A DNA stretch of 53,126 bases, the filler included, from Dimargaris cristalligena (taxonomy: Eukaryota): assembly GCA_003614675.1 (NCBI GenBank). It is 2 parts of 2 records of this genome, joined end to end, with 100 filler letters (N's around TTAATTAATTAA, not from the genome) between each part and the next. Parts side by side here need not be neighbours in the genome. Positions count along the whole stretch, not along the records: positions 26,625 to 53,126 come from ML002539.1; 1 more part is not named here. One strand, 5' to 3'. Positions 9,372 through 53,126 of this stretch are shown one piece after another. Both the position numbers and the translations under genes were made by a program. Position 1 is the stretch's first letter. Each line of letters begins with the position of its first letter. The notes under the pieces were generated by a model. It searched no databases. It saw only the letters and a list, made by a program, of their open reading frames with translations, and was not told the DNA's origin.

Positions 9372-10221
9372 GGCGCCCGTCTGGCCCTTCTCGGTCGCAC
9401 TTCCCTTCCTTTGCCTTTTGTTTCAGTATATTCCACTCTTTCCCTCGTTGTCGTTTTGAACAGCCAACCAACTATTCCGTTGAGTAATCTTGTCCCTCTT
9501 CTTTAGCCTGCCTCTCCCTTCCTCTTTTCGTTCGTTCGACTTCATCCCACCCTTCGCCGCCGCCATCGCCTTCGCAAACCCCGCCGTCCAACCCTTCTCA
9601 TTATCCCTTCGAATTATCGCTTTGTTACCACCTTCTATTAGCTTATATTCAGCCTTGCTCTTTCTCTTCAGTATACCCCCCTACCTACGCTCCCCGGTCC
9701 GCCACTAGCTTCGCTTATCCGGTGATCCGCTGCCCAATTTTGTGAATCCCCTGCTATTTGCAGTGCCTTCGCTTTGCACCAGGTTTGAGCCTCGCATCAA
9801 ATATTGGGCTTTCGTCTGCTCAAATTCGCCCAACGACTGTGCGTTTTGTCCTCCCCCTCCCCGCCTCTGTGCTCCTGTTGGGCGACCTTCTAATTCGCAG
9901 TGGCTGTGTCACCGCCACTTCTTTGTACATAATAGGTAAATAGCACACCTCATTGCTTCGACATTCCACTGTGCTGGACTCTTATCGGCCCATTCATTCT
10001 ATCCTCTCACCCACTCCCCGTCCCCAATTGCGTTGCGCCAATTTTGCAATTCAGGAGCTGCGTCACTCGCCTGTGGCTTCGGTGGGGTTGTGTCGAGTGA
10101 CCCTTCCCAGTTCTATTGTAGTGGTGGGCGGCCTGCCTGGCTGTTGATAGCCCTCCCCCTCCAAGTGGCTCCACAATTCGGTGCTCTTAAGTCACTTCCA
10201 CTTCATCGACAACCTCCCGAG

Positions 10222-10229
10222 TATAAATA
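10222..10229 (+). promoter_or_regulatory. Putative proximal TATA box of the homeobox gene
   Basis: TATAAATA followed by a second CT-rich tract, about 270 nt before the start codon. Confidence 0.4.
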
Positions 10230-10497
10230 GACCGGGGTTCCCGCCCCTCCCTTGGCTTTATTTCTCGCTTTCTCTCGATCCATGCACTTCATCTTCCCTG
10301 CAGTTCTCACCCCGCCTTTCCCTCCCCTGCTTCTCTTTCTCATTACCTGTTATTAACCTACTATCCGTCCCTTGTATACTTATCATACTCCTCCCTGTGT
10401 TCATTTTATACCGATTGACAACAGTCGCTTGCTGCGCCATACATAGCATACCGACATCATCTATCCTCCGACACTTATCATTGCTCCAGCCTAAGGC

Positions 10498-12342
10498 ATG
10501 TTGGACCACCCCGGATCACATAGCCCCTCCCAACCATCTACTCAATCGAACGAACGCATGTTAACCAACCCGGAGATTCCCCGACCCGCCGAGTCGAACT
10601 CGACCGGTAGTGGCCAACCGGCCCTCGCTCCCGCAACCGCGCCTGTCAAACCCAAGCGCCGGAAAGTATCCGACGAACAGCTTGTGCTGCTCGTCGAGGT
10701 GTTTGACCAAACCGACACGCCTAACCACGAGATTCGGGAGAACTTGTCCAAGAAATTGGGCATGACCAATCGGGACGTCCAGGTATGGTTCCAAAACCGC
10801 CGGGCGAAGGTGAATCGCGAAAAGGCGAGCGCCCAGGCCGCGCGGTATTCTGGTGACCACCACCACCACCACCACCTTATGAGGGCGGGTCGCTGCCGTT
10901 CCATATCCGACGCCAGTTCAAATATGTCCTACCAGTTTGTGCCTATTGTGAGCTGCGATAAGTCCAAAACTGGGGCTGCCATGAGCCAAAGTCTGCGGGG
11001 ACAGCGTTACCACCACCCGCCCCCGATTGCTCCAAGCCCCCACTCGTCCTATCCCCCAGGTAGCCCCGGCATGGGCATGAACTACCGCCCGACAGCTAGT
11101 GCTAGCGGTCCCCTTCGTCCGCGCCGCGGCAGTCACACCGTGGATTGTGGACCTGTCATGCGGGCCAGCCCCTACTCTATGGTGAGTTCGCCCAAAACCT
11201 CTAGCCTGGCCCCGGCTATGGCTGCTGTGAGCCTAAACTCCAATCCCAACTCCACCTACCCATACCAACCGACCCACCCCCATTCGCACCGCCCCGAGCC
11301 CCTCCAGATTGGACCGCACGCTAACCGTCCCTGGGGATCTCCGACGAGCGCGGCCTCCCATTACCCCACTCCTGGGTCATCCTCGCCACTGTCCCCTGGT
11401 TACCCCCCGCTCCCTTATTCCCCTGTTACGGCCGGGGCGGCCTATTCGGCCAGCCCTCCTTGCACGGTCCCCTTCCCCCACCCGACATCGCCGTATACCG
11501 CTTCGTCCTCTGAGCAGGGCCGTTATTTCGCCCCGCACCACCAGTATTCCGGGCCCTCTGCCAACTTCTCCCGAACTCGTCGGTCGTCCTTATCCCACTC
11601 CTACAGCTGCGGCTCCCAATACATCAATTCCACGGAGGGCTACTGGGCCCGACCGGATGCCGCCATCCCTTCGCCCTCCTTCCGCGGGGAACCGATGGGT
11701 CCCGGATCAGGCCCGCACTACCACCTCCTAGACGAGATGCCAGCTAGCTATGCTCAGTCCCAAGCCAACCCGACACCCATGTCAAGCGCCGCCTCGTCTG
11801 CGACCTCTCCCTACTCCAAGATGATGGACGCGCGTGCCAGACTACCCCCTCGGGAGGATTCAAAGTACCCGGTCGACTGCAAGGGATCCCCTCCGTTATC
11901 AACGTCGTCAGCCGCTTCCCCCGAAGTGGTTGCGCCTGATACGAATGGCCAAGATCCCTTCGATTTGCTGGCCACTGCTGCTTCGCTGGTGCACCAGAAT
12001 AATGGCGCGTCCGTTCCCCCATCCTTCCAGAAATCGATGTCTCCCCAGTTGTCACTGCCTCGCCCTGTCGGTGGCGGCCTGCCCAGCCCAAGCCAGTTGG
12101 CCTCTGCGGTAGCTACCAAAACCCCGCCGTTTTCATCGGGACGAGCAGTCCTGCCACCTCTGGCCGAGGACCTTGACTGGCACCGCGGTGAGGAATCCCG
12201 CCTGCCGGTTCGCCCGAGCCACCTTACCCGACTTCGTGGGGGCGAGTCAGCTCCCCGTCGCAACACCCTTAGTGGCCCCCACGATCACCTGCCACCTATT
12301 CGTCAGATTCTGGGAATCAGGGAGTCGGAACACCGCTGTTAA
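10498..12342 (+). CDS. Homeodomain transcription factor (614 aa, intronless)
   Basis: N-terminal homeodomain KPKRRKVSDEQL...LGMTNRDVQVWFQNRRAK with the WFQNRR recognition helix (Q50); the remainder is Pro/Ser-rich low complexity; ATG start. Confidence 0.95.
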   Translation: MLDHPGSHSPSQPSTQSNERMLTNPEIPRPAESNSTGSGQPALAPATAPVKPKRRKVSDEQLVLLVEVFDQTDTPNHEIRENLSKKLGMTNRDVQVWFQNRRAKVNREKASAQAARYSGDHHHHHHLMRAGRCRSISDASSNMSYQFVPIVSCDKSKTGAAMSQSLRGQRYHHPPPIAPSPHSSYPPGSPGMGMNYRPTASASGPLRPRRGSHTVDCGPVMRASPYSMVSSPKTSSLAPAMAAVSLNSNPNSTYPYQPTHPHSHRPEPLQIGPHANRPWGSPTSAASHYPTPGSSSPLSPGYPPLPYSPVTAGAAYSASPPCTVPFPHPTSPYTASSSEQGRYFAPHHQYSGPSANFSRTRRSSLSHSYSCGSQYINSTEGYWARPDAAIPSPSFRGEPMGPGSGPHYHLLDEMPASYAQSQANPTPMSSAASSATSPYSKMMDARARLPPREDSKYPVDCKGSPPLSTSSAASPEVVAPDTNGQDPFDLLATAASLVHQNNGASVPPSFQKSMSPQLSLPRPVGGGLPSPSQLASAVATKTPPFSSGRAVLPPLAEDLDWHRGEESRLPVRPSHLTRLRGGESAPRRNTLSGPHDHLPPIRQILGIRESEHRC

Positions 12343-22134: not shown

Positions 22135-22998
22135 GCACATCCCTCCCTTCTCCATCGAGATGGTTCCTCTCCTTATCCCTCATTGGTTTTTTGCCTATAC
22201 TCTCGTCTTTCTCTGCTGCTCCGGTTCATTCCCTGCTGTCGGCATTTAATACCAGCTGCCTCACTCCTTCTCCATTGATATTAGATATTTCCTCTGTGAC
22301 TGACGATTATTTACCCCGGCTATTTTTTTCCTGCATTCTGACGCACTGTCCTCCATACTCTTCCGCATTTCCTAATAATCCCCCCCTACTTTCGCCCGAA
22401 CATACTTAGCTGGGCCTCTCCCTAGTACATACCGCTTCCTTTTTTAAGCCCCTTACGGCCTTGTCTTTATCAAACGCCCCTTATAAACCCAAGCCGCCTA
22501 CGTAGCCTTTAATTCGAAGCTACGCTCCGCTATAGACCTTATTACCCCTCTCCCCTGACTGCGCCCCATTTTCCTTCACTTGTAGTAACAAGCCTTTCCC
22601 CCTCCTAAACCCCGTGCTGTATAGCCAACCACTACTTCAACTGGCGCGTCATTGTTTGGATTGGCCTCATACCTTTCTCTCGCCTTTAACTCTCTTTCAC
22701 GACGACCATCCACTAAGCCCATTGGTGGCTCTCTCTTAGACATATACTCCCTTTGAGCGTTTCGTATTGGGCTGTTTATCCACACATCCACTTTTGGTTA
22801 GAGCCATAGTTCTTTTTACAGTATATTTATCAGCCATTTTACTGTTTCCCTCCCGCAACCATCACACTGCGTCCCATTTATTAGATCAATAATTAGAGGC
22901 AATTTCCCCGATACACTTACTTACGTAGAAATATATAGATATATATATATATATACAGATAACCCGCCTGGTCTCCAAAGCGGTCCTATTTGACTACT

Positions 22999-25245
22999 AT
23001 GAGTTCGCCGGTTCCGACCGAATATTTTCCTTTAAACAAGGCCTCCGCTGTGCTACAGTGGCTATCGGCCTTTAAAAACCAGTCCAATATCGACGATAGC
23101 GCCGAACCTGCCGACTTCACCATGCGCGCCAAACCCGGTCAGCAAACGAACAACAGCGCCCGGAACTCGTGGCGGAGTGTCCGGGTGGTCGATGGCGCGG
23201 TGTTGGACCAATACGAAATCGAACCGCATCACCACGAATACACCTCTTCGCAGTTGGGTGCTGCTCACACTCCTTCGCGGCGCACATCTAGTGGTACTCC
23301 TGAACCCCATACCTACGATGACACCCAGTATGACCTCCACCAGCCCCAACCTCAGCACCAGCATCAACGCCTGCACCATTACCAAGCGACTGGGGAAGAG
23401 GCTCAATCTGAGTGCGACCCGGACGATTTTATGACCGCTTACGGTGATGGCCAAAGGAGTGTCTTGGGGCTTGCCGCTGTACCAGCCAGTCCCCGCTACG
23501 CCACCTATATCCCTTCGCAAACACCACCCCCTCCCCCGTTACCTATTATCATTACGACCCACCGGGGGGCCGTGCCAAAGACCCCCGTCTCGGCCCACCA
23601 CCTGTTTTCTACTGACGCGGCTGACCGGTTCCCATCGTCGCTGTCGTCGACTTCGCCACCGACTTTGCTGTCATCATCGGCACCCTCCCCATCGTCGTCT
23701 CCCCCTAAATTCTCGAGTGCGCCCAGTATTCCGACCCGCAAGTCATCCATTTTAAACCTGCCGCTCCCCGTCCATACACCACCGATCTCTCCCGCCACCC
23801 ATCCCGCTACCTTGGCCGTACCACCCACCCCAGCCTCCGTTTGGAAATCGAACCTCCCCGTGCAATCTCTGGAGCAAGTGGACGCCGGAGTTACCCGCAC
23901 CTCCACCGGCCAAGCGCGGTTTATCCCCTGCAAGGAACTCGCAATTACGTTAGCTCCGCGGCGGAGTTCGGAGGACAACGTGGTGTATAACACTACCGCG
24001 GCCCGCCAGAAACAACAACAGCAGCAACAGTCGTCGCTGGCCAGCGCGTCCCGTCAATCTCTGAGTGCGATCACTGAATCCGGGGACCGGTTTGGGCGCC
24101 AGCCCCTCCGCCTCGTCGACCACAGTACCTTATTAACGGCCCTGGGTGGGAACGGGTCCGCCGGAAATGGCAAGCGGAACATGGCCCAGGGCACTTCCGC
24201 CCTGGTGATGAATTCAACGTCAGCGGCGGCTACCCCCACGTTCCCTTCGTTCCCCACCATTTCATCCACTACCTCCTCCTCTTTAAGTGGCAGCGCCGCA
24301 TTTTTGTCAACCTCACCACCAGCATCGTCCAATTTGGCCGCCTCTTCCTCCTCGCACGCTACGCCGTACTCTCTGGAGGACCCCTTGCCGTTCAGCGGCC
24401 AGAGTCACGCAACCGGTTGGCCTCGGCCCCTGACCCGCCACGTCCTGCCGTCGTCGTCCAAGCTGGGGAAACGCGGATCATCGAAACCCAATATTTCCGC
24501 TCCTCTTCCGTACTACCGGAGCCCCATTCAGGATTGCGCTTCTCCGTCGGGCCTGAACGGCGAGCACAGTACCCACCCCTACCTGCACCACCACAACCAT
24601 TCAAGCCACACGATGTCCCAGGCCCCCGGCTCAGCATCGACTTATTCTTTGGCCAATGCCGCGTCCGCTTCCGCCTACTCGATCCACCAGGGTAATGTCA
24701 ATCTGACCATGACGCCTGGGTCGACACAGGGTGTACTCAAAGCCGAAAGCCTCATCACCAAAATGTACGGCTACTGGGCCCAAGAAATCGCCCTTCTCCA
24801 TAGCTCTTCGAGTGGTAGTGGTGGTAGCAGTAGCAGTCATACCTATGTCTCCCCTACCCCCAAAATGCCCTCCACCCCGGCCTTTCCCAGTAATCACTCC
24901 GCCGCTGCACCCCAAAGCCCCCGATCCGACGCCTCCTTCTGGACGCCGCCCACCTCCCCCACCTTACCCCCATCGGCTCTGGGGACCCGAACCTACCTCC
25001 TTCCCAATGGGACCAGTAACCACCTCCCCGCGTCGGCCACCGACAGTCAGGTTGACTTGAATCAGTCCGTGGATTATAACGAAGGTAGCCGTATGGGCAG
25101 CAACATCCGCGCACCCGTGGGGTTAGAGTTCATCCAGCAGCGGAGGGTCCTTAAGCATATCTTCTTTGAAGCTCTGGTGTCGGATCCGACAATGGCCAAT
25201 TTGACCATCCAACTGTCCATGCGGTCCACTGATATGGAATGTTAG
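22999..25245 (+). CDS. Hypothetical Ser/Pro/Thr-rich, largely disordered protein (748 aa)
   Basis: 2.2 kb open frame with GC-rich coding-like composition; first ATG is at 22999 (the track starts at an upstream TTG). No recognised domain; only short ordered-looking segments at the N-terminus, around LITKMYGYWAQEIALL and at the C-terminus. Confidence 0.8.
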   Translation: MSSPVPTEYFPLNKASAVLQWLSAFKNQSNIDDSAEPADFTMRAKPGQQTNNSARNSWRSVRVVDGAVLDQYEIEPHHHEYTSSQLGAAHTPSRRTSSGTPEPHTYDDTQYDLHQPQPQHQHQRLHHYQATGEEAQSECDPDDFMTAYGDGQRSVLGLAAVPASPRYATYIPSQTPPPPPLPIIITTHRGAVPKTPVSAHHLFSTDAADRFPSSLSSTSPPTLLSSSAPSPSSSPPKFSSAPSIPTRKSSILNLPLPVHTPPISPATHPATLAVPPTPASVWKSNLPVQSLEQVDAGVTRTSTGQARFIPCKELAITLAPRRSSEDNVVYNTTAARQKQQQQQQSSLASASRQSLSAITESGDRFGRQPLRLVDHSTLLTALGGNGSAGNGKRNMAQGTSALVMNSTSAAATPTFPSFPTISSTTSSSLSGSAAFLSTSPPASSNLAASSSSHATPYSLEDPLPFSGQSHATGWPRPLTRHVLPSSSKLGKRGSSKPNISAPLPYYRSPIQDCASPSGLNGEHSTHPYLHHHNHSSHTMSQAPGSASTYSLANAASASAYSIHQGNVNLTMTPGSTQGVLKAESLITKMYGYWAQEIALLHSSSSGSGGSSSSHTYVSPTPKMPSTPAFPSNHSAAAPQSPRSDASFWTPPTSPTLPPSALGTRTYLLPNGTSNHLPASATDSQVDLNQSVDYNEGSRMGSNIRAPVGLEFIQQRRVLKHIFFEALVSDPTMANLTIQLSMRSTDMEC

Positions 25246-26524
25246 ATCTGGAACAAACCGGTTTTTTTATAGTCCATTGCGCCATGTAACCCTTCCCCTC
25301 CCCTCCTTACAACATCCTCTTCCTTTATCTCTCTGACACAGGGGTTATCCGCACCTTTCCTCGCGCCTCACCTACAGACGCATCTGAAGGAACATAAATC
25401 ACCATCCAGTATTCTTGTTTAAAATCACTGTTACTATTTCCTGCACCCCTCAATTACTCGTAAAATATGACATTGATGGTCATATCAAGTAGCTAACCAC
25501 TCTATCATTATTAGGTTTACAATTGCTACGGACATTATCTTTCTTTTCCTATTTCCCCCCATCTTTCCATGGGTCATCCCAAAATGGACTTTACATGACG
25601 CTTACATCTTAATGACCACCGATATGCTATAGTATTATTTCGTCCAGGCCACCTACTTTTGGTTGTACTTTAGTTCTCTCCCGATCTGAATTTGGCTACT
25701 AAAGGGTGGGTGACTTACTCGACTATTTTATGTTCTATCTATACCCAATATATGTATAACTATGTGCCATAATATAAACCACTTATTAAAAAAGCTCTGT
25801 TAGCCACACATAACTTCAATGAGTGATTTACATCAGGTAATTCTTTGATATAAGGTCGATTCCAACGTTCGCGAGAAGTGAACGCTAACAGTACTTTTTG
25901 ATTTTTTGTGGATATTCGCGCCTGGATTGACATGAATCAATGCATATTTTCAGCCACCCTCACAGCTCTTTTTTTCTGAACCATTCACTTAACGATGCCA
26001 GTTGTATAAACTAAGGCTAGAGAAGGGGTCGAGTTCTTTACAACTGGGACTGCCGGATAACCCCATCAAGGGGTGGGGGGTTCGACATACGACCCCAGTG
26101 AGTAACCGGGATCGTTCTATTTTTCAATGTACACATGCAGTGGGCACTATAAAATACGATTTAAAAGGGATTCGAAATCATATTGATGAGCAGCCCAACT
26201 GATCAGCGGAGTTGACTGATTAAGGAGGTGATGGATTATCCGGTTGCATATATATCACTGCAAAAATTGCCATATATTCACTAGTTCGACTTTCAACTGG
26301 CCAAGTAACAATATTCATCAGTTCACTGTTAGACTGGCGAATCAACGTATAACACGTCCATCGAAATTGATCACTTAATACGGATTGCATACTTTTAGCG
26401 TAGATTCTATATAATTATTATTAGGGCTGGCGCGCGCTTTTTTGAGGCTTGCCAATCTATTTTTCTAAAATGGAACCCGGGGGGGGGAAATAGGAAAAGA
26501 AAGATAATGTCCGTAGCAATTGTA

Positions 26525-26624
26525 NNNNNNNNNNNNNNNNNNNNNNNNNNNNNNNNNNNNNNNNNNNNTTAATTAATTAANNNNNNNNNNNNNNNNNNNN
26601 NNNNNNNNNNNNNNNNNNNNNNNN
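26525..26624. other. Artificial contig/scaffold linker (N44-TTAATTAATTAA-N44)
   Basis: Exactly 100 nt and symmetric; the central 12-mer places stop codons in all six frames. Confidence 0.97.
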
Positions 26625-26653
26625 ACTGATCCTCGATTTATAAGTAAGAACTA

Positions 26654-26690
26654 TGAATACTGAATACTGAATATTGAATATTGAATATTG
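26654..26690. repeat. 7-bp tandem repeat (TGAATAY)x5
   Basis: tgaatac tgaatac tgaatat tgaatat tgaatat tg, next to the contig end. Confidence 0.85.
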
Positions 26691-28488
26691 GAAAAACGGC
26701 CTAGTCATTGAATGGCTTATAACTGGGTGGGAAAAGATGAAGACTGGTATTTGGTGATGTTCTTCATCTTCCTAAACTAAAAATAGTTTGGCCGGGATAT
26801 ACTATTAGAGATTAAGCAGGCCCGGCCACAACAGGGGATAGGGGAATTCAAATAGCCTGATTTTTTAACTTTTGCAAATAGAAAACCTGTGTGACTAGTG
26901 TACTTTTCTAATGTAAAATTACATAATGGTTTGTGGAAGTACGTGTGGTATGTTTGAGGGATATACCAGATGAATGGGTGGACTCACCCGTAGTTACAAA
27001 TTGATTTATCGAATTCAATGGGGGCTGTTGAAAAATATGTCTGAACAGATCTATTATTTTCTCTTGTTTCTGACTAATTACATTAATTTATTTAGTTATT
27101 CTTTGTCCTCTCATTTTAACTATTCAAAATGACCCCTACCAACTACACTATTTTATAGAACTAGCCACCTAGAGGCACCTGCCATCCTCTAGCCACTTTC
27201 TTTCATTTTAACTATTTTTATTAACACTCCATTAGTATTTTTATTAAATTCATCAATAACCATTTATTAATATATTTATAAGAACTGTGCCCCCTTCCTG
27301 ATAATGGCTATTTTCAGGTATTTCAATATTCATTTATATAACTACCAAACTCTACCCATCATTATTATGGGGTCTCAAAGGGCCTATATGAGGATTATTC
27401 TACATTACATCTAACTAAGAAATTTGAATGTATTGTACTTAATAATCCATAGGATTAAAGTCAACTAACTATGAAGGACTAGGCGCCATCACCACCTAGT
27501 TCTATCAGTGAGGCGCGGGAATTCGGTCTTGTTGAAGGGTCACCTTCCTTCAACCATTCCTGCCACTCAATTTGCCTATTCCATATATCCCCTTCATTAT
27601 ATATCCATATATTATTAACTATTCATTATACCACTATCTAGTAGCGTATTCTAGCATACCTTACGCTGGCCCAATGTCTTTATCATTAGTTCCCTCAGCT
27701 ATATACAGCCGAGTCAATTCCTATAGTTATTCTTGAGTAAATGACCATTTATTCTATACCCCCTTTTATAGTTAACTTGATCTATTTGATATTCCCGTAT
27801 TTCTTATCTATAAATCGCCCTTCCCATCAACTATGTGTGTGTTATTTTTTGTAAACTCGTCCAAGATGCGGACACTTAATCATCCCTTGGATTATTGTCT
27901 ATGACAGGATGGTTAATATAAATAGAATATCTAATCTTTCTATGAAACCAGTGGCATCCTTTATTATTTTAGCTCATTCCTGTACTGCTCACCTCTAACC
28001 AAATAGTTTTGATTCCAATAGCTAGATAGCATATGACGGATATGATATTTAGAGCCCCCACTATTTACACTAATGGCTTTATGAGTACCTGATTCAGAAT
28101 GGGCCCAAATAATAACCAAAGCCCCAAACATTTCCTTATTTATCTACAGGATAAACATAACCCATTCTACCCATAAAATGGTGGTTTTCCAAACCCACCC
28201 TTTGTAATTGAAATTAATTTACTATACATTCCCAGAAACCTATATTCCCTAGAGAAAAGAATGTGACAGACACTGGCCCCAGTTCCTATACGTGTATGCA
28301 TCGACGAGTTTTACATCAATCAAAACAAGTCAGAACATAACATAATTTATTAAACCGAAAGATTATAAAGGAAAAGTTGACCCAAATAAAAGGTGGCCGT
28401 CCGAAAATAGAAGACGGGTTACAGTCAGTGAGACCATTTGAGAGTGGTGAGACACATCCCAACTGGCTTAACCTACCGATGGCTGGTG

Positions 28489-33578: not shown

Positions 33579-36500
33579 CTATTCGATGGGGATTGTGGAC
33601 TTGAGGTGGTAGTTAACCAGATTGAGGGGATTGCCATTCAGGGGGGCGGCATTAGGCGACACAACAATCGAAGGACTACGGCTGCGGCTATGGTTACGGG
33701 AGGTAGGGATGGTACCTCCTGACATTGAAGGAGACCCCATATCCGATGAGATATGGTAGTGATGGAGCACCTGCTGTTGCTGGTATTGTTGGTGAGAAGC
33801 AGCACCATCCCCATGACCAAGGGCATCTCGACTTTGGCCGCTCACCGGTCGGGTCCCGGAGGGAGCTAACGAGACCAACCCACCATTCCCGTATTTCGAT
33901 AATGAGGACATCATGGGTGGAGGCGGCATCGTGCTACTTGAGAACATTAACGGGGTAGTCGATCCCCCACCTACAGCGCCTACCAATTTGGAAGGATCGA
34001 CCGGGGTGGAAGCTGCGCTAGAAATGCGCACTGTTCCGGAAGAACTCGTTGATGTACAGCTACCCGACCGCGACGAACTCCGCGGATATTGCTGGGCGCG
34101 GGCGCGGGCCTGCTGGCATAATGTCGTGTACCGACCAGCTTCGGCGTAAAGTCGGTCGAATTCGCCACCAATCTCTTCACGCACCCGGCGGTTCCAATTG
34201 GGCAACGTTGATGACAAGCAGGGGTGCGAGTGACCAGACAGCGACGATGATGACGAGGATGCCGACGACCGATGGCCACCCTCTGCATCACCGGTGGTGG
34301 TTTGGGGGCCAACATGGCCAGAGATCGAGGCGGCTGACGCGGATAATTGGTCGCTTTTAGTTAAGTTGGCGGTTGGGGGAAACGAAGCCGACGAAAGCGG
34401 AGCAGTCTCGCGATTAATCATAATCGCTTCGTAGTCGGGGCGCAGTTTACGGAACTCAGTAAGCAATTCCATAGTGAGGTCGAGGAACAATTCCAGGTCG
34501 CATAAGGGATCCCGATGGAAAACCTGCTCCGCAGCCACCGTTACATAAGCCAAGAGAACATTGGTGGTGGAAAAATGCCGGGTGCGATTGAGGGTTGCGG
34601 CGGCGGCAGAAGGAGCATTCGACGGCGTGGAAGTAGGAGTGTTAGAGGCACCGTTCGAGCCTGATGCGGAGGGGGTAGGGGGCGTTGACAGCGACTTTAT
34701 GGGTGGAACCGGGGCCTGCTGCTTCCGCTTTCCGGCTTCGGCTTGCATAAAATGGGTGAACACTTCCTGCCATGGTGTAACGGAAGCGGTCTGGGAATAG
34801 TCTAATAAGAAGTAGTCCGAAAAATACGGCCGGAAGTGTTGGGCGTTACTACTACGTCGGGAGCCGGCGGGCGTGCTGTTGGAGGTGGGCGACTGTTGGT
34901 CATCCTGCACGAACAACATGCGGGAAAGTAGGTGGGAGAAATCAATGACCAGGTTGATACAAAAGCCGTGCAGTTGGGTCACCATATCGTTGATGGATGA
35001 TCCGCCATCGTCACCCACACCACCTTCCGAAAGCGCAAAACTAGTGGTTGAGTACCCCGGGGTAAGAGGTGCGGCGTGACCATTACTGCTGGGAGCCAGA
35101 GAACTAGATCCATTCGACAAGATTGAGGTGTTGGAGAAGGAGGCGATGGACGAGTGTCCTTCAATTTGAAACATAGTTGTGATCCCGAGGTCGTGCGCTT
35201 TCATCAAGGCCTTATCCAAGACCCGGTTCAGGGGCGTAAATTTCCGGGGATCGGGTGGACCCCGCCTGAAGAAAGGACGGAGGTAGGGCAGGTTCTCGTG
35301 GAACAAGAACTCGATGGATTCCTTGGGGTCGGTCGTTAAGAACAAGTGAAGTAGCATAGGACAGGTGAGAGTGGTCGCTTGGCGCCAATAGTCCAAGTGC
35401 AGCTGGCCGTACTTAATGAGACAAAAGTAAAACATATCGTCCACCTCTAGGTCGGATGAGGTGAGGAGATAGACTGCCCCCAGAAAGGGTGCCGAAACGC
35501 TTAATTGGGCCAGGCGGGCTAGTTTGGATCCATCAAGCCATTGGAGGTCGTGGAACATCCAGGGATTGGGCACCTCGTAGAGCCGGGCCCGCTCGTTACC
35601 GTAGAGGCAAGCATTAGACAGCTGATTCACGGTTTCGGAGGAAGAGTCCTTGGCCAGGTAGCGGAGGCGATCGAGCCCCTTCAGCGCAATCTGCTTTAAA
35701 CTGGCCGACTGGCGGGCAAGCAGTAACAGTGCGGAGATTTCGCGCAGACAGCGCACTCGCTGTTGGGTGGTATTAGCGGACGAAATAGCCGTCAAGCGAA
35801 CCGACATTTTATCATCCCGATCGATGATACGGTGGTGCATGCCGTCGTTGAGCAACAGGTTGAGGCAGCACCCAAAGGCGGATGCCTTATCTTGTGTGTC
35901 GAAGACAGGGGAGTGAATGGAGTGACAGAGAGGATTGGCGCAGTGAGGAGTGGAGCAAATGATATCGCGGGTAGAGTCATACACCATTATCCGCAGATTG
36001 ATCAAAAAGAGGCGATCCAGGATCGACACGTCTTTCTCGCGGGCCAATCGGCCGAGATCCCATTGAGTGATTGCATCCATGTCAAGCCTATCAGTACATG
36101 GTCCAATATTAAATGGGGCATGCGCAGAGAAGTATACACAATGGTAAAGGAATAGTGGTTAGTGAATGAGCCAACTAATTCTTAAATGTGACACTGGAAA
36201 AAGCAATCATCACCAAGTGCCTCAAAAACCAGCCGAGTGTGTAAACAACGAAGTATGAACAAATTAGAGGTGACGGCCAAAAAAAAAATAGAAACAACGG
36301 CTTAGTAGAGAAAAGGGAGAAAGAAATAGAGGAAGTAGGTGGGCGAGGATTCAAATGAGAAATAGTGACCAATATTCGCAATTGCCTATTCTGAGATGAA
36401 GGTGGATGGGTGAACCCATCGCTCCACAAGTCCCTCCTGGTATGTAGCCAACATTGGTGGCAGGCGTAAGCCACAAATGGCGAAATAAGTAAAAAATAAT

Positions 36501-42058: not shown

Positions 42059-45000
42059 ATGGGCTATTTTGATTATACCATTCGTCACACCGTAGGCAAA
42101 GGCGGCCGTGGTACGGTGTACCTGGCCGAGCGTATCCGCCGTCGCCCTGATTCCAGCCCCATCGATATGAATGCTCCCCTCTCGCCACCCCCGCTGTGCG
42201 CCATTAAACGCATGGCCCATCGACCCAACAATCATACTTCACTGACTCGCTCCCCCTGCGCCAATGGCCAACTTTGGCTGAACGAGGCTCGGATGCTCAA
42301 AATCCTCCATCACCCACACATTATTCGGCTCCATGAATCCTTTCAAACCCCTCGTTTCTACTATTTAGTCACCGAGTATGCTGAAGGAGGTAAGCGCCAA
42401 GAGGAGGAGGAGAAGAAGAAGAAGAAGAAGAATGGCCGGTTGGATCAGGGACAATATCTCATTTAAAATAATTTTACTATCGCTAGTACCACTATCGTAG
42501 AAATGATGTGGTGACTAGCCGCAATTTAATTTAGATGAGTGGCTGTGGATTAAGGGCTAGCCTCACCAGCTTGGGCCGTAGCCCAGCAGTAGTAGTAGTA
42601 GTTCCCTCCTCTTTTTTCCAAATCCCTTGTTATTATAGCCCCTGAATTAATTTCACCCTTACTTGGCCAGCATCGAAGGTCGCAAGGTTTAACCACCGAT
42701 GGCCACGTTCAAATTGGCCTGGGGCGCACGTTCGGCCGGACCTAAAAATAGCGTCATCGCCGTGTTGGCCGTTTTCAATCAACCATCCCGAATTCGCAAG
42801 GAAATTCCTATTACCCTACTCTCTCTCTCTCTCTCTAATTCGATAAAACAGGGTGGTAAGGTGACTGGGTACGCCTTCACTTACTTTAATTACCATCTCC
42901 GTTTATTACTATATTGACTCTACGAAAAGGCGATTTCGGCGCCCTTATCGACAATTGCCCCGACCGCCCCTTTAGCGAATCTAGAATCGTCGAATGGGCT
43001 AACCAACTTACAAGTGCCTTGTCTTACCTCCACGCATTAGCCATAATTCACCGAGGTAGGTACTGAGAGGAGAGCTCTTTCTCTCTCTCTCTCTCCAACT
43101 CAGCCTTATAAAAGAATTAATAGGCCAAGTCGCCTGCAAACCCCACTACTTTGGAGGCTACCGGAATCGGCCCATCATTTATTTTTTTTTAAAAATAATC
43201 TATTATCCCCCCTAACCGTGTCGCGCTATATATTTGAGAGGATAGATGGATTGTGGTCGCACGTTCCGGGATTCCAATTTGAACACCCCCCCATTTTGAA
43301 CTGCTTTACCCCAATGTCACCCCACTACTCTCCCCCACTCCCCTTATCTACCGCACCTACTTACCACCTAGATATTACTCCTCGCAATATACTTTGGCAG
43401 CCGAAGTGTAGCCGACTTCTTTTGTCCGATTTTGACCTCGCCGTCCAGCTGTCCAATTCAACAGCGCCGTATTATCTGGATAAAGCCCTAGTGGGTAAAT
43501 ACATACTTTCGCTACAAACTGCTATATATAGCAGCCGTGTCGTAAATGGTGCAACACTATTTATCCTTGCCGGAACCATTGGTGCTTTTACAAGGTCCAG
43601 GCTCAACTATTCGAATAATCTGGACAGCTTACTAATCACTACTAGGTGGACGGCTATACCTATCCATTCAATTACCCCATCCCCCTGACCTATTTTCCCC
43701 TTCAAATTCCCCCAGGTACACCCAACTATATGAGTCCGGAAATCTACCGTGAGCGAAAATATCCTCAACAGCATACCCCGCTTCGTGTTTTAATCGGCCC
43801 GATAGAATGGCTTCTGTGGATAGCACTAGTCTACGTGCACCCAGCGTTAGGCAGCCAGTGACTTCCCTCATGTATTTAATTGTTTGGAACTTTCTCACTC
43901 CAAGTGTGTCTTTAACTCTACCCATATAAGCCCCTCTACCTGTACCTCTATGTAACTACCTACTGTATCCCCCATATATTCCCCGGCCATACTTGATTTT
44001 TAAACACATACAGCCCAGCTAGTGACATTTGGGCGCTCGGCTGTTTTCTGGTAAGTCACCCAAGGATTGCATATCCAATATACGGCCCAGGCAAGAGCAG
44101 TAGGAGGGGGGTGTGGATATATTGCATTAGTAGGGTAATCATTTGTCCGTGCTTGAACTAAGAGTGATTCAATTTACTCTATTGGATTATTATTATTACC
44201 TCTATCCACGCACCCATGACCGGCATCCGGGAAAGTTTGAATTAATTGAGCTGCGCATCGCCTTCGTCGCATCGACCACGGCCGTTTTGGCCAATAACAT
44301 CCAGGTCCAGCCACTACCCCGAATAGTAAGGTAATCGAAATTCCGGCTTATATAAAGTATTCATGGTATATCCCCGATCGACTAGCCGAATGACTAGGAT
44401 CGACCCTTGCTCATCGGCAGTCGCTCGCCATTCCCGACCATCACAGAAGAAGACCGTCTTCTCTTTCAAAGTGCTCCTTCGCTCTACCAAAAACCAAAAA
44501 AAAACCCCCAAAAAAACACAGCAGAGGTAAAATAATCTGGCATAAGCCCTGCTTAGCTATATAGGGGGTTGAATAAAACATTGGTGGTAAAATAGGCAGC
44601 ATTTTTTTTAAATAATAATATATATCCAGTAAACCTCCCCTCCAAAAATACTACTGTTTGCTATGCAGTTGCTGTGAAGGAGTCCCACTTAATTAGCTTA
44701 AACCGGTTATTTGAATACGTGCCTTTTCAGTTGCATAAATACATAATATGTACATATATATCTGCGTTATTGTGCTTGATTGAACAGGCCCGTAGCATCA
44801 TCCTTGGCCCAACTAGTCCACCGAACTTTGGAGCGCCAACCCCTAAATCGGATTACCCTTCAGGCCATTCGTGAGTCTTTGACCCCACAACAGCAACAAC
44901 ATCACTACCACCACCTTGGTAGAAACCGACCAACTAGCCCTTCCATTCAAGATGGGTCGCCGTGGGCCATGACCCAACATCGACAAGGGTCTTTACACCA

Positions 45001-45202
45001 CGGGCCGGGGCAGTGGTCCAGGTCGGCGGACACTCAGACGGGGCAGGATTTTGGCCGTCCCTCTGCGCTGACTTACCGGCCCCATAGTCGACCGAAGGCT
45101 CTACCCTCATGGTCACCCGGTAGGTGTCAAATAGACCGACATAGTAATATAATATTGATATATATATATATTCTTGTGGTAGCAGATATCATACTCTTTT
45201 AA
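42059..45202 (+). CDS. NEK/NIMA-like Ser/Thr protein kinase, seven exons (42059-42389, 42930-43055, 43372-43494, 43716-43758, 44008-44050, 44236-44330, 44788-45202), about 391 aa
   Basis: Spliced product has all subdomains in order: GKGGRG, CAIK, NEARML...HHPHII, TEYAEGGDF, FSESRIVEWANQLTSALSYLH..IIHRDITPRN, LSDFDLA, VGTPNYMSPE, YSPASDIWALGC, FELIELRIAF, LERQPLNRIT. All intron phases are consistent. The 3' end is uncertain (possible extra donor GTAGGT near 45120). Confidence 0.87.
43759..44007 (+). other. U12-type (minor spliceosome) AT-AC intron, 249 nt
   Basis: 5' end ATATCCTC, branch-like TACTTGAT (43990-43997) with its A 11 nt from the 3' end, terminal CAC; removal restores SPEIYRERKYSPASDIWALG in frame. 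Confidence 0.85.
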
Positions 45203-45594
45203 AAGATATACAAAAGCAACGCCTTTAACTGGTATGGCCTGCTTTTACATCCATTGACTCTACAATATATATATATATATTCCATTCAACCCACAATCGA
45301 TAAATTGTCGTAGAATTTCCTTGGATTCATTTAGGCGAACACCCAACTACAACCCACCCACGGCCTAGTTCAACTGAGCGATTAGAAAGCCGTATAGATG
45401 CCCTTACCGCGGCAGTCAACCCTTCTCTATTTGCATTCCTATACCAGTTAGCGCGTCATGGTTGCGCATACCACGTGGCTATGGCGACCTTTCAAAAGGT
45501 GCACGCTAAACATAATCCAGCAAGTGTGGTCAGCCCCGATTGGTGGTCCAAATTGTTAACTCTTAGTAAGTAGGCCGGTATTTAACATACTAAT

Positions 45595-47078: not shown

Positions 47079-49394
47079 CTAAAATTTAATAGCTATGTGG
47101 CCTGTAATCTAGAAGTGCCCCTTAAAATCCACTTGGTGACCTACAGCCCAAAGCTACTAGTCCACTTCGCCATATATAGTCGAGCATACAGTTATCCCTC
47201 ACTCCTTAATTAATCAGTCGTTTACTTCAATTTCCCCGTTCCTTGTTAACCCATTGCTTAATAGATATCAGTAACCCTGTTTTTGCCATCTTATTTAGAG
47301 CACCTCCCTTCCTTATATTGGGACTCAGTAAGTATACTATGTCTAGACAGGGGAAAATCCCGGAAATGACTGGAATACCCTACATGATCCGACACTTGTT
47401 GGGATACTGACGCCCTATTATATTCTGTCCGCCGTTCCATTGTCAGTGCCGCCCACTTCACTGGGGAGACTATAGGCATAACCATGAAGTATGCCCTCTG
47501 GTAGTCTCTTTAATTTCCTAAATTGAAAGATTTGCAGCTCCCTTAAGGTCCAGTTACCTTTTTTCCTTTCGTGCCTTTTCATATATATATATTTTTCATG
47601 GGGGATCCTAGTATAACGTATGGTCGACGATTGCTGTATATCTGGATCAGAGGGAGGATTTTTTTTATAGGTTTACACGATTAGTTAATAGTTTATGAAC
47701 CGTATTTACGATATCAGTTCCCGTTTTTAGCAGGGGAGATTTATCGCTGTCCGTGACGTACATTCGCCACCAGATTAAACATTGGCCCAACCTGGTTGAT
47801 ACCACTTTGTTTGTTTACTCGCTTTCCAACTGACGGCAAAACCCCGGTGGTTTCGTCCATTCACCGATTCCTAGCGCTGCGGCAATTCGTAATTGAATTT
47901 GCCATACTTAACCTTTCGGTCTCTATCGCTTACTCGCTACGATTTGCCATTAGTCTTGCACTCGCTGGCGCTGTATAAATACCGCCATATTTTCCATTCT
48001 CCTAATAAAGCAGACCATTTGATGTCAGCATTTCCAGGAAAACGAGTTCCTGCTTTGCGTAGTCTTTTAGTGTTTAAGTGTCATCCCGAGTATTATTTAG
48101 TGTCTTACGAGTATTGTCTGAGTATCAGTGTTTTCCGAGCATATTTATTACCGGGTATTTATTAGTATATCCCAACATCATTGATGACAGGAAACCCTTC
48201 TGCCCTCAGTATCCTGTCCCTCGCGAACTCCCCACAACAACCCCATACCCCCACCACCCCAAAGGTGATATATGTATCAGTTTAAAATATTATTTTTTAT
48301 TAAAACATGGGGAACCCGGGTTTCCGAGTAATAGGCTCGGTTTTATACCCCCGGTTCGTTTTCGTGTTCGAGCGGGTCGGTAAACCTGTTCGTTCGGTGC
48401 TTGACGGGATATCCTGGGATGATGGGTCGCGTGGCCTGTTCGGTTTCACGGGTGTTCCCCATACTTAGCTGTTCCACTAAGCCATCCGCCTACGCGGTAT
48501 ACCCCATTCTATCAATACTTTGATGTCATTTTCCTTTGTTGCTTTATTGTAATCAGCCTTTTTTCCACCTACTGTATTACTATGCCTGTAATGCATAGCA
48601 GCCATGCAAGTAGTATACCAATAAAGGTCTGTTGATAAGATGTTAAGGAGAGCCATGCTTCTTCTGTGATGATTGGGATAGGCAGACATGGGTATTCAAA
48701 ACGAGTATTTCTAGAATCTCAGTGACTCATAGATTACTTGATATTCGACTGCTATTGTAGGAATGGCCCTCAAATACCGGTACTAGCGTGAAAATATGCA
48801 CCTCATTATTCGGAACGTGCTGTCGCCAACTCTTCCAACTATGTCATCTGAGGCTACCATCTCTAGCAACTGGTTGCCAAGCAGATGCCTCATCCTGACT
48901 AGTCTAACAATGGCTTACCTCCGAGTCAGATTCAGAACAGGGGGGTAGGTATTTAATATCCACAGCATATGCAGGAGAGTACTGGACAGCATAACTGTTA
49001 GGCATGCAAAGTAATAATTGCAGGATGAGCTGTCCCAATGCATAAGCAAAATACGTGGCTAATTAGCCTTGCGACCAGGGCATCGTGTCAACCGTTGTAA
49101 GAGAATAGGTATATCGGTCCGCCGGACCATGAATGTTCCAGTTAACCCGGCCACGAGGATCCAAGGGAATTGGACTCAGGTAGTTTCCCAAACGACAACC
49201 TCATCGTGTTCCTAGTTGGGTATAAATAGTGGCAATAGAACCATCGGCATAGGCAAGATCCGTAAATCAACCCCCTATTCTCTGCCCTCAGAGTCTCTAA
49301 TGCTTAAGTAGTATCTTACATTTTTGTCCATCGCTAGTATTCACCACCACCCAATTCATTTAGTTACTGTTACCCCGGTCTCGATTTATCCACC

Positions 49395-52300
49395 ATGTTC
49401 GGCTCTACTTTTACCCCCAATTCCCCCCGCATTCACTTGCCCGTAGTCCCCGCAGACTACCAACCGACCTTCAGCCTACCCCTCGGCAAGCCCCGCTCCA
49501 ACCTATCGGGCAATGCTTCCTGGTGCTATGGTGTTTCCTGCCCCTATTTAAAGGAACTACTGCGTCAAGACCAGTTCAAACAAGGGGTTCAGTTGACCAC
49601 TGCCATTATCCTAAGTCGGTACTACCGCCAGCCTGCAGTCGCTTTTGCCCACTGGTCGGGCCAGTTCGGACCAGGTGATATCATGGACCAACCTCTGGAA
49701 AAGCCTGAATTGGTTCTGGCGCAGGTGAGCCCCGATGCCCTTTGTTCCGCTGCCCTCCTGCAAAAGCCCGCCCCCAGTGGTATTCCTGACTCGTTGGGCC
49801 CAATGGTCGAAGTTGTGCTCCACACTGACGAGGATAGCACCAGCGTAACCACTCCCTGGTCCGAAATCGACGATAGTCACAGTCAGCCCAAGGAGGCCGA
49901 GGCAGACCCGAAGATCGTCCATCTACTAGCCCGAAGTAACGCCCATTTGGCGGTTAGTTGCACCCATAACCAGGTGCATGTCCAGGTCACGATTACCTAC
50001 GCCCGGGCTCAGTATCGTAATTCAGCCGTAGCAGAGTTCACCAGTCAGTTCGTAACTGTCTTTTCAGTTGTTGCCCAAACATTGGCAAGTGGTCAGTCTA
50101 ACCTTGTGCGCGATATTTCGTGGGTTAGCGACCGGGAACATGCCCGCCTGTTGGAGTTCTCCCAAATGGCCAAACCAACCCAAGGGGACTACCGGCCTTT
50201 CCAATGCCAATTCAGTGACTGTGCCCAACGCTTTCCTGGCCATATTGCCTTAGTCCGCGGCGGCGAAGAGTGGACCTATGCCCAACTGGACTACGCCAGT
50301 TCGGAGCTGGCCCGCATTCTAGTTGATCAATACGGGTCCTGTCCCGAGGTCCGAGTCGCCCTACTCGTCCCTAAGTCGATTGCCTATAATGTGGCCATTG
50401 TGGCTGTCCTCAAATCGGGGGCCGCCTACGTACCCCTCGACCCCGACTACCCAATCGACCGAATTCAGTATATCCTGACGGACAGTGACGCAGCAATGTT
50501 AATCGTGGCTGAATCAGTACTCGGAAAACTGCCCGGTCAGACTACGCTACCTACTGTGATCATTGACCCGTTCGCCCAGAAGCCGGTATTTACGGATCCA
50601 TCCGACTTCCAGTCCTTCCAATCATCCCCCAGCGATTTGGCCAACGTCATCTATACCTCGGGTACGACGGGCCGCCCCAAGGGTGTCTTGCTCGAACACC
50701 GCGGCATAGCCAACATAGCCTCTGATCCATGTTTAGGGGATACCTATGGCCTGGGCCGCCGCGCCCTTCAAACTGGGTCGATTGCCTTTGACGGCGTGCT
50801 TGTGAATACCCTCCGGTCCCTTTGCACCGGCGGTACTATCGTGGTCTCATCGGACAATCTGCTGGAGGACCTGAAGCATGCTCATACGGGGTATCTCATG
50901 ACGTCATTCCTCTCTCGCTTGCATCCCCACGACACTCCGGAAATGAAGGTATTTGGGGTCGGTGGAGAATCCCTGCTACCGGAACACCACACCCGCTGGA
51001 CCCCTCACTGCTACATAGCCAACCATTATGGGCCGACAGAAACCACCGTCTACTCCAACCTAGCCTTGATTGGCCCAGATGATGATATCAATGTTGGTAA
51101 GCCTACCCGCAACGTTTTCAATCTCATCGTGGACGAGGATCTTCAACTAGTGCCCGTCGGGGCTCCCGGTGAGATACTCATTGGCGGGGCGGGAGTGAGT
51201 CGGGGCTACCAAAACCTACCGGAGCTGACTGCCGCTAGGTTTATTCTGAACCCCCATGGACCGGGTCGCGTATACCGCACCGGTGATTACGTTCGCTGGC
51301 TCCCGAATGGAACGGTCGAGTATATCGGTCGTATCGACAACCAAGTCAAGTTACGAGGGTACCGGATCGAGGTTGAGGAGGTTGAGAATGTGGCGATTCA
51401 ATTCCCCGGACTTAAACAATGCGCAGTGGCCGTGGTTCAGGAAACCTTGGTCATTTATGCCAGTCCCGCAAACATCGATTCGGCCGGCCTATTGAGCTGT
51501 CTAAGGGATCGGCTTCCTAAACAAATGATACCCGAGTTTGTGGTGCCGGTAGTGGACTTTATCTACACTGCTTCGGGCAAACTGGACCGTAGGTCGCTGC
51601 CCTCCGTTGATCACTTATTGGCCAGCCATGCACTGTCGTCCACTACTAGATCTGAAATTAACGCCCCTCAAACTGATATAGAAGAAGAACTTCGCCGGGT
51701 CTGGGGTCAGATTCTACAGTTGGACCCCGATCGCATCAGCACCACTGACCACTTTTTTCGAATCGGCGGTGACTCTATTTCGGCGATTCTGCTGGTGTCC
51801 AAAGGCCAACAGTTGGGATATCAACTAACCGTGCCATTAATCTACCAGTACCCCGAGCTCCGACAGTTGGCCCAGCACACTGAAAAGACTACTAGCCGGC
51901 AAGCTAATGTGAACGCCGCCTACCAGGAACAAGTCCAAGGCGAGGTGGCTTTGACGCCTATCCAATGTTGGTTTAGTGAAATTGGTCTTTGTAACCCCCA
52001 CCACTTTAACCAGTCCTTTACCCTGAAGGTCAATTACAAGGCCAATTTGTCATTGACGGCCATTTATGACGCCTTAGTGGCCCTGGCCAACCATCACGAT
52101 ATTCTCCGGGCCCGATTTTGTCCCAATGAGGACAGTCAGTCATGGGTCCAGACGATACCTACAACTAGAGCCGTCCCCACTGACTTTCTGGTTTTGGAAG
52201 AGATGGTTTCGTCCGAAAACTATGCCGACTTTATCCTGCGGGTCCAATCCAGCCTTAATCTTACTACGGGACCTGTGTTGGCAGTTGCCCTGATCCACGA

Positions 52301-53126
52301 CCCGGACAGTACCTCCCCGCCCCGCTTATTCATCACCATCCACCACATCTTGGTGGACCTGGTTGCCTGGCGAATTCTGATTGAGGATTTGAATACCCTG
52401 CTCCGAGGTGCCTCACTTCCGCCGAAGACATTGCCTTTCCAAGTCTGGGCTTCCCAGCTCGATAATTATGCAGCAGCTCTGTCGGCGGATATATGGCCCA
52501 CCCAAGTAGACTCTGGCCGGCTCACTCCCGATATCCGGGCCCTCCTTCCACAGCCTGAATTGGGTGCTACTTGTACTCAGGCTGCCCGTCTCTCCACGTC
52601 TTTCGAATTCGACTCTGAATCCACGCACTCACTATTGTTTCAATTGGCCCCACAGCTACGCGTCACTCCACGCGACTTGCTTCTGGCTACTTTCACCCAG
52701 GCCTTTGCCACTGCCATTGGGCTCGACCAGGTTACTTTTTGCATGGAGGGACACGGCCGTGAGCCGTGGTTATCTGATCAAGACATTACCCGAACCGTGG
52801 GCTGGTTTACCGCCCTCTACCCCCTCGTTCTTCGGGTTCGGTCTGGTCAGTCCATACTGGACCTGTTACGCCACACCAAGGAAACACTGCAGCAAATTCC
52901 AATGAAGGGGTTTCCCTATTCCCTGTTGAATTACATGCCAGGGGTTTCCATGGAAGAGCGGGCCAAGTTGGAGGCCCAGACCCCGACTCGCCTAGATGTA
53001 CAGTTTAACTACTTTGGTCGTTTCAACAATACCGGCGGTGACCAAAGCGATGATATATTATCCATTGAATGGTCGGACTACTTTGGTCTACATGACTTTG
53101 CCCCTCAGGACAAGGTTATTTATGAT
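49395..53126 (+). CDS. Non-ribosomal peptide synthetase, 5' part (partial C - A - T - E), truncated by window end
   Basis: Open frame of 1244 codons from CACCATG to the window end, absent from the track because it has no stop. A-domain motifs WTYAQL, LKSGAAYVPLDP, YTSGTTGRPKG (50652), NHYGPTE, GEILIGGAGVSRGY, YRTGD, GRIDNQVKLRGYRIE, SGKLDR; T domain FFRIGGDSI (51765); epimerisation motifs LTPIQ.WF, HHILVDLVAW (52341), EGHGRE (52746), RTVGWFT, FNYFG. Confidence 0.96.
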   Translation, partial: MFGSTFTPNSPRIHLPVVPADYQPTFSLPLGKPRSNLSGNASWCYGVSCPYLKELLRQDQFKQGVQLTTAIILSRYYRQPAVAFAHWSGQFGPGDIMDQPLEKPELVLAQVSPDALCSAALLQKPAPSGIPDSLGPMVEVVLHTDEDSTSVTTPWSEIDDSHSQPKEAEADPKIVHLLARSNAHLAVSCTHNQVHVQVTITYARAQYRNSAVAEFTSQFVTVFSVVAQTLASGQSNLVRDISWVSDREHARLLEFSQMAKPTQGDYRPFQCQFSDCAQRFPGHIALVRGGEEWTYAQLDYASSELARILVDQYGSCPEVRVALLVPKSIAYNVAIVAVLKSGAAYVPLDPDYPIDRIQYILTDSDAAMLIVAESVLGKLPGQTTLPTVIIDPFAQKPVFTDPSDFQSFQSSPSDLANVIYTSGTTGRPKGVLLEHRGIANIASDPCLGDTYGLGRRALQTGSIAFDGVLVNTLRSLCTGGTIVVSSDNLLEDLKHAHTGYLMTSFLSRLHPHDTPEMKVFGVGGESLLPEHHTRWTPHCYIANHYGPTETTVYSNLALIGPDDDINVGKPTRNVFNLIVDEDLQLVPVGAPGEILIGGAGVSRGYQNLPELTAARFILNPHGPGRVYRTGDYVRWLPNGTVEYIGRIDNQVKLRGYRIEVEEVENVAIQFPGLKQCAVAVVQETLVIYASPANIDSAGLLSCLRDRLPKQMIPEFVVPVVDFIYTASGKLDRRSLPSVDHLLASHALSSTTRSEINAPQTDIEEELRRVWGQILQLDPDRISTTDHFFRIGGDSISAILLVSKGQQLGYQLTVPLIYQYPELRQLAQHTEKTTSRQANVNAAYQEQVQGEVALTPIQCWFSEIGLCNPHHFNQSFTLKVNYKANLSLTAIYDALVALANHHDILRARFCPNEDSQSWVQTIPTTRAVPTDFLVLEEMVSSENYADFILRVQSSLNLTTGPVLAVALIHDPDSTSPPRLFITIHHILVDLVAWRILIEDLNTLLRGASLPPKTLPFQVWASQLDNYAAALSADIWPTQVDSGRLTPDIRALLPQPELGATCTQAARLSTSFEFDSESTHSLLFQLAPQLRVTPRDLLLATFTQAFATAIGLDQVTFCMEGHGREPWLSDQDITRTVGWFTALYPLVLRVRSGQSILDLLRHTKETLQQIPMKGFPYSLLNYMPGVSMEERAKLEAQTPTRLDVQFNYFGRFNNTGGDQSDDILSIEWSDYFGLHDFAPQDKVIYD

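Follow-up and report, generated by a model that had tools for sequence, protein, structure and literature searches.

The closest described counterparts of the intron reported here are the U12-type AT-AC introns of early-diverging fungi. According to the available portion of PMC2846911, the U12 consensus comprises /RTATCCTTT and UCCUUAACU, and U12 introns together with the corresponding snRNAs are present in Rhizopus oryzae and Phycomyces blakesleeanus, with none in Basidiomycota. In the accessible part of PMC10639083, 205 minor introns are given for Rhizophagus irregularis, 249 for Basidiobolus meristosporus (Zoopagomycota), and none for Dikarya. [quoted passage not shown] Minor snRNA components have been reported in Mucoromycota and Zoopagomycota (10.1101/2022.10.12.511939, in the portion available). 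For Dimargaris and Kickxellomycotina, no printed report of minor introns was found in the full-text literature, and among the 20 of 707 papers listed for Coemansia none mentions this genus; survey supplements may list D. cristalligena.

The window, that is the whole stretch of 53,126 nt of Dimargaris cristalligena DNA analyzed here, contains a mitochondrial-carrier frame with 100% identity to a protein of D. cristalligena and 49-61% identity to proteins from other Dimargaritales. The source is accordingly D. cristalligena or a near-identical strain, in Kickxellomycotina (Zoopagomycota), which agrees with the early-diverging host outside Dikarya assumed in the initial annotation. The GC content is 0.59 at positions 10001-12000 versus 0.35 at 26001-28000, and the most GC-rich part of the window harbors a frame encoding a homeodomain protein (10495-12339, +; PF00046, E 6.4e-17). 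Two open frames of 760 and 859 aa (22963-25242, +, and 33582-36158, -, respectively) have no Pfam match at E<=0.01. An intron-free NRPS frame with AMP-binding, PP-binding, and Condensation domains (49338-53126, +) is still open at the window end. The Atlas clusters closest to it come mainly from bacteria (Bacillota) and in part from Ascomycota, and they were uninformative as to the taxonomy of the host.

On the plus strand, the segment extending from A43759 to C44007 is probably a genuine U12-type AT-AC intron, namely the fourth intron in an eight-exon gene for a NEK-like Ser/Thr kinase of 450 aa (Table 1). As far as the available portions of the surveys characterize the introns of Rhizopus, Phycomyces, Rhizophagus, and Basidiobolus, the Dimargaris intron resembles them in its AT-AC termini, its /RTATCCT 5' site, and a TCCTTRAY-like branch site near the 3' end. 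Further shared features are the lack of a long pyrimidine tract, a non-zero phase, the occurrence as one among GT-AG introns, and a host outside Dikarya. It differs from these introns in having a C at +8 and one mismatch in the branch site. In addition, the introns of the other fungi rested on ESTs or RNA-seq and on snRNA searches, whereas the Dimargaris intron is known from genomic sequence alone.

Table 1. Coordinates of the kinase gene model and of the signals in its fourth intron
Feature	Position	Strand	Description	Basis
Exon 1	42059..42389	+	start codon to ...TEYAEG + 1 base; subdomains I-V	Pfam Pkinase E 1.3e-8; tblastn of P0012 42071-42391
Intron 1	42390..42929	+	GTAAGC...AAG, 540 nt, phase 1, U2-type	
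Exon 2	42930..43055	+	GDFGALIDN...AIIHR	tblastn and orthologue alignment
Intron 2	43056..43371	+	GTAGGT...TAG, 316 nt, U2-type	
Exon 3	43372..43494	+	DITPRNIL...SDFDLA...KALV; catalytic loop and DFD	tblastn and orthologue alignment
Intron 3	43495..43715	+	GTAAAT...CAG, 221 nt, U2-type	
Exon 4	43716..43758	+	43 nt, subdomain VIII, GTPNYMSPEIYRER + AA (two bases of Lys codon); CAG acceptor before	tblastn and orthologue alignment
Intron 4, candidate U12-type AT-AC intron	43759..44007	+	249 nt, phase 2, four in-frame stops	
5' splice site of intron 4, ATATCCTC	43759..43766	+		sequence match
Branch-site-like TACTTGAT in intron 4	43990..43997	+	putative branch-point A43996, 11 nt from the final base of the intron	
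3' terminal AC of intron 4	44006..44007	+	CAC/A; segment ends AAACAC	
Exon 5	44008..44050	+	43 nt, subdomain IX, A (third Lys base) + YSPASDIWALGCFL	tblastn and orthologue alignment
Intron 5	44051..44235	+	GTAAGT...AAG, 185 nt, phase 0, U2-type	
Exon 6	44236..44330	+	FELIELRIAF...PLPRIV	tblastn and orthologue alignment
Intron 6	44331..44787	+	GTAATC...CAG, 457 nt, U2-type	
Exon 7	44788..45119	+	subdomain XI and low-complexity linker	orthologue alignment
Intron 7	45120..45313	+	GTAGGT...TAG, 194 nt, U2-type	
Exon 8	45314..45573	+	to stop codon TAG; C-terminal region common to Dispira orthologues	tblastn 45319-45465; alignment

The gene model was built from a tblastn search of the window with P0012, a 432-aa relative from Dispira parvispora that was found by an exhaustive search with exon 1 and marks every exon. 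A search by shared words, with exon 1 as query and longer proteins as targets, returned 41 candidates, none of which scored. Two Dispira simplex proteins, including P0088, were added as relatives; the Dispira proteins carry PF00069 and bear the NCBI name 'Nek4'. The protein accessions for the orthologous loci are KAJ1969054.1, KAJ1653388.1, KAJ1658746.1, KAJ1912223.1, KAJ1923041.1, and KAJ1989083.1. The spliced model is identical to P0012 at 161 of 400 aligned positions and to P0088 at 154 of 410. The alignment with the Dispira orthologues is uninterrupted at the AT-AC join and at the neighboring joins, with homology extending as far as the C-terminus. Each of the eight exons is open, and the product contains the motifs GKGGRG, AIK, HRD, and SPE, with DFD in place of DFG; the part encoded by exon 1 matches the Pkinase domain PF00069. 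Open exons and kinase motifs argue for a gene under selection.

Among the PDB matches of P0012, the kinase domain of human NEK1 (4apc_A) is the best (E 1.9e-26), followed by NEK2, with AMPK, BRSK2, and RSK within about 10 bits of these two. The alignment with NEK1 is gapless over the stretch containing the join, so PE and D(I/M)W stand at the canonical distance of 11 residues. The NEK family, as represented by NEK1 (PDB 4apc), and P0012 have an identical GTPxY(M/L)(S/A)PE ... SD(I/M)WA(L/F)GC spacing, whereas the Dimargaris kinase, like its full-length orthologues, has DFD instead of DFG. Beyond P0012 itself and P0088, the best match in the search with P0012 is 30% identical (E 9.5e-17), and the other close matches seen are solely truncated models from Dimargaris and Tieghemiomyces. 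For this reason, the kinase looks restricted to Dimargaritales, its subfamily being uncertain. A metagenome scan with the Dispira alignment gave 93 pattern matches, of which 0 were confirmed.

The suspicion that the gene is mis-annotated was borne out, as both public assemblies carry fragments of 114 and 139 aa of the 450-aa model. The public D. cristalligena model (P0010, 114 aa) consists of exon 1 spliced to a four-codon exon and is 100% identical to exon 1 over 110 aa. The partial model of the second assembly (P0207, 139 aa) does not splice at the end of exon 1 but continues into intron 1, from which it skips to the AG at 44013. Since the public models break upstream of intron 4, the AT-AC intron is not demonstrated as the cause of the truncation. 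At the start of intron 1 (42389-42466, +), a GAG/GAA/AAG repeat gives an in-frame read-through rich in Glu and Lys, and this stretch was taken as coding in P0207. The orthologue of Tieghemiomyces parasiticus is likewise annotated as fragments that read into introns (P0011 and P0208, 106 and 161 aa), while the Dispira orthologues are full length in both species.

Fragmentary models at this locus could also mean that the segment is an unspliced insertion and that the gene is either a recently dead pseudogene or one encoding a truncated protein, so that the short public models would reflect a broken locus. The four in-frame stop codons of the segment and the DFD in place of the catalytic DFG would fit such a history. 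Against it, four of the eight exons lie past the segment, and all are open and aligned to the end of the Dispira proteins, while DFD is common to the full-length orthologues and is therefore not a sign of decay. The segment is single-copy in the window (next match E 0.44), and an insertion is unlikely to bear both minor splice signals at exactly those borders that restore the frame. A broken locus is thus highly improbable. Retention of the segment within the coding sequence, in turn, was rejected because reading 43759-44007 in frame yields four stop codons. A self-splicing or mobile intron was also rejected: the fold of the segment has a z-score of 0.62 with 137 of 200 shuffles folding at least as well, the window holds no second copy, and there is no Rfam match.

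The position of the join was derived from the protein. All pairs of cut points leaving an open frame were enumerated (donor 43725-43899, acceptor 43850-44039), and each of the 2056 resulting join products was scored against the matching stretch of P0012, for which the reference self-score is 157. The top score of 126 is shared by five of these stop-free in-frame joins, all of which represent one 249-nt removal in equivalent placements because ATA recurs at both borders. A single one of the five placements has the termini of a recognized intron class, namely AT-AC, starting with ATATCCTC. Removal at 43758/44008 joins subdomain VIII to subdomain IX without a gap relative to the full-length Dispira orthologues, and this join alone gives the orthologous protein. 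The window has PEIYRER before the join and YSPASDIW after it, corresponding to PEIYNRQRYSPASDMW in the orthologues. With the 5' site unchanged, 3' ends at AC 44005 or AC 44011 were discarded because of a shifted frame (lengths 247 and 253). A 3' end at AG 44013 would keep the frame but was discarded because two conserved residues are lost and because its distance to the branch A is 17 nt.

The set of joins includes 22 with GT-AG or GC-AG termini, the best of which is GC-AG 43771-44013 with the donor GCATAC; its product is two residues longer (...RERKYPQHPASD...). With a best score of 109 versus 126, all of these fall well short of the AT-AC join, whose borders are those that the protein alignment requires, and the claim of the initial annotation that no GT-AG pair connects subdomains VIII and IX with normal spacing holds for these 22 joins. 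The rival donor it had named at 43749 is a real GTGAGC and is in frame with the AG at 44018, giving a product seven residues shorter; its suggested pairing with the AG at 44013 falls, as this shifts the frame and is absent from the stop-free in-frame joins.

These sites would matter if the major spliceosome removed a canonical intron, either GT-AG 43749-44018 or GC-AG 43771-44013, and the ATATCC were coincidental. GTGAGC is a decent donor, a short T run precedes the CAG acceptors at 44013 and 44018, neither join shifts the frame or brings in a stop, and in the public model P0207 the acceptor is the AG at 44013. The two joins nevertheless score 83 and 109 versus 126 for AT-AC, and the seven-residue deletion resulting from the former falls where the orthologues align with NEK1 without a gap. 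The codons for Y-S-P-A, which lie upstream of the AG at 44018 and would become intronic, match the orthologues and are therefore exonic. Next to the GTARNN sites of the gene, GCATAC makes a poor GC donor, and the coincidence of ATATCCTC with a correctly spaced branch site would have a chance of about 1e-6. Removal of a canonical intron is, on this evidence, very unlikely. As a separate observation, the AT-AC 5' site is preceded, at a distance of 10 nt, by the good U2-type donor GTGAGC (43749-43754, +), and the two CAG acceptors (44012-44018) are found just past the 3' end. Possible roles are those of cryptic competitors or of a regulatory switch; as these sites adjoin the junctions and could compete, they are counted against the U12-type reading.

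The signals at the borders of intron 4 correspond to the minor class. Direct reading of the sequence returned the same coordinates and the same description of the segment as the initial annotation, including the U12-type signals it had listed: ATATCCTC at the start, TACTTGAT with an A 11 nt from the end, and no long pyrimidine tract. Of the 8 positions of RTATCCTT, the 5' site matches 7, and it is covered by the more permissive RTATCCTY; its C at +8 is counted against the U12-type reading under the strict rule with T at this position (consensus from the available portion of PMC2846911). TACTTGAT departs from TCCTTRAY at a single position, with A in place of the first C, which is counted against the U12-type reading as well. 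Downstream of it there are just five T, followed by AAACAC. In U12-type introns, the optimum for the distance between the branch site and the 3' end is about 10-15 nt. The other six introns of the gene are all of the form GTARNN...AG (GTAAGC, GTAGGT, GTAAAT, GTAAGT, GTAATC, and GTAGGT), and the ATATCC of intron 4 falls outside this U2-type donor pattern. Minor introns are known to be biased against phase 0 (accessible part of PMC10639083), and the phase 2 of intron 4 agrees with this, which is weak evidence.

The motif as such is not enriched in the window: RTATCCTY was seen 2 times versus 8.98 expected, and every one of the 100 shuffles contained 2 or more occurrences, a result counted against the U12-type reading. 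The same applies to the lack of a second U12-like intron at the sites checked among the 12 RTATCCT sites of the 53 kb, coding context being seen for the site of intron 4 alone. Of the other sites checked, 32598 is without evident coding context, 50470 lies inside the continuous NRPS frame, and 4744 on the minus strand offers a 66-nt GT-AG possibility with no open frame around it. ATATCCTY occurs at 2 of the 106,252 strand positions of the window, and the probability of TCCTTRAY with at most one mismatch in a 7-position slot is about 0.01. From these window frequencies, and allowing for the five equivalent placements, the probability that both signals fall at the protein-defined join works out at about 1e-6 to 4e-6. 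What is improbable is the placement of the motifs at the single join that the protein alignment requires, not their occurrence.

AT-AC termini also occur in U2-dependent introns, which were reportedly described by Dietrich, Incorvaia and Padgett in 1997. U2-type AT-AC introns keep a U1-like 5' site of the ATAAGT type. Such introns share the terminal AT and AC with the Dimargaris intron, whereas they retain a major-type 5' site, a distant branch, and a pyrimidine tract in place of the ATATCC and the branch A 11 nt from the end. The AT-AC segment might accordingly be excised by the major spliceosome or by another route, the minor snRNAs having been lost from the lineage. This would be in line with the 'other AT-AC introns' that appear beside U12 introns in an EST survey (PMC2846911, Table 2, available portion) and with the strong loss of minor introns in the Zoopagomycota ancestor (PMC10639083, accessible part). 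The Dimargaris segment, however, has TCC at +4 to +6, unlike every other donor of the gene, and its 11-nt distance between branch and 3' end and its lack of a long pyrimidine tract are features of the minor type. U12 introns and U12 snRNAs, moreover, co-occur in the species studied (PMC2846911, in the portion available). Excision by a route other than the minor spliceosome is thus very improbable.

Rfam searches yielded no minor snRNA in the 53-kb window, whether the gathering threshold or a cutoff of E<=1 was applied, a result that speaks for the window alone. The matches obtained were one tRNA at the gathering threshold and two chance-level miRNA matches at E<=1. The tRNA match (245-346, +; 53.3 bits, 102 nt) is probably an intron-containing nuclear tRNA gene; ARAGORN predicted no tRNA in the window.

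From the signals and the protein alignment, we infer that the transcript is spliced in vivo at 43758/44008 and that the minor spliceosome removes the U12-type intron. In this process, U11 would pair with the ATATCC 5' site and U6atac would do so later, while U12 would pair with TACTTGAT, bulging A43996. The AC located 11 nt downstream of A43996 would then be selected as 3' site by its distance. Excision would create the Lys codon AA/A and restore the 11-residue spacing from SPE to D-I-W. Taking intron 4 as excised in this manner suggests that the lineage keeps a second, minor spliceosome.

As far as the available portions of the surveys document them, minor introns are known from several early fungal lineages, including Basidiobolus of the same phylum, and the AT-AC intron of Dimargaris would be an addition to these. 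A more far-reaching scenario, which we consider unlikely though conceivable, is that Kickxellomycotina, whose presumed Zoopagomycota ancestor had lost most minor introns, maintain a minor spliceosome to serve the few that are left, one of which lies in this kinase confined to Dimargaritales. In Dispira, where the orthologues are full length and gapless at the site while the models of Dimargaris and Tieghemiomyces break, the intron may in this scenario be lacking or of the U2 type. The locus would then represent a recent gain of a minor intron, or the loss or conversion of a U12-type intron caught in the act, within one small order.

The corrected eight-exon model describes a NEK-like kinase of apparently restricted distribution and defines one precise junction. 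Annotation-based surveys undercount in such cases, as classifiers of annotated introns cannot see an intron in a gene that both public annotations truncate. If spliced as proposed, the intron would be direct genomic evidence of a minor spliceosome in a fungus of the Kickxellomycotina and would add this lineage to the patchy map of minor splicing in fungi.
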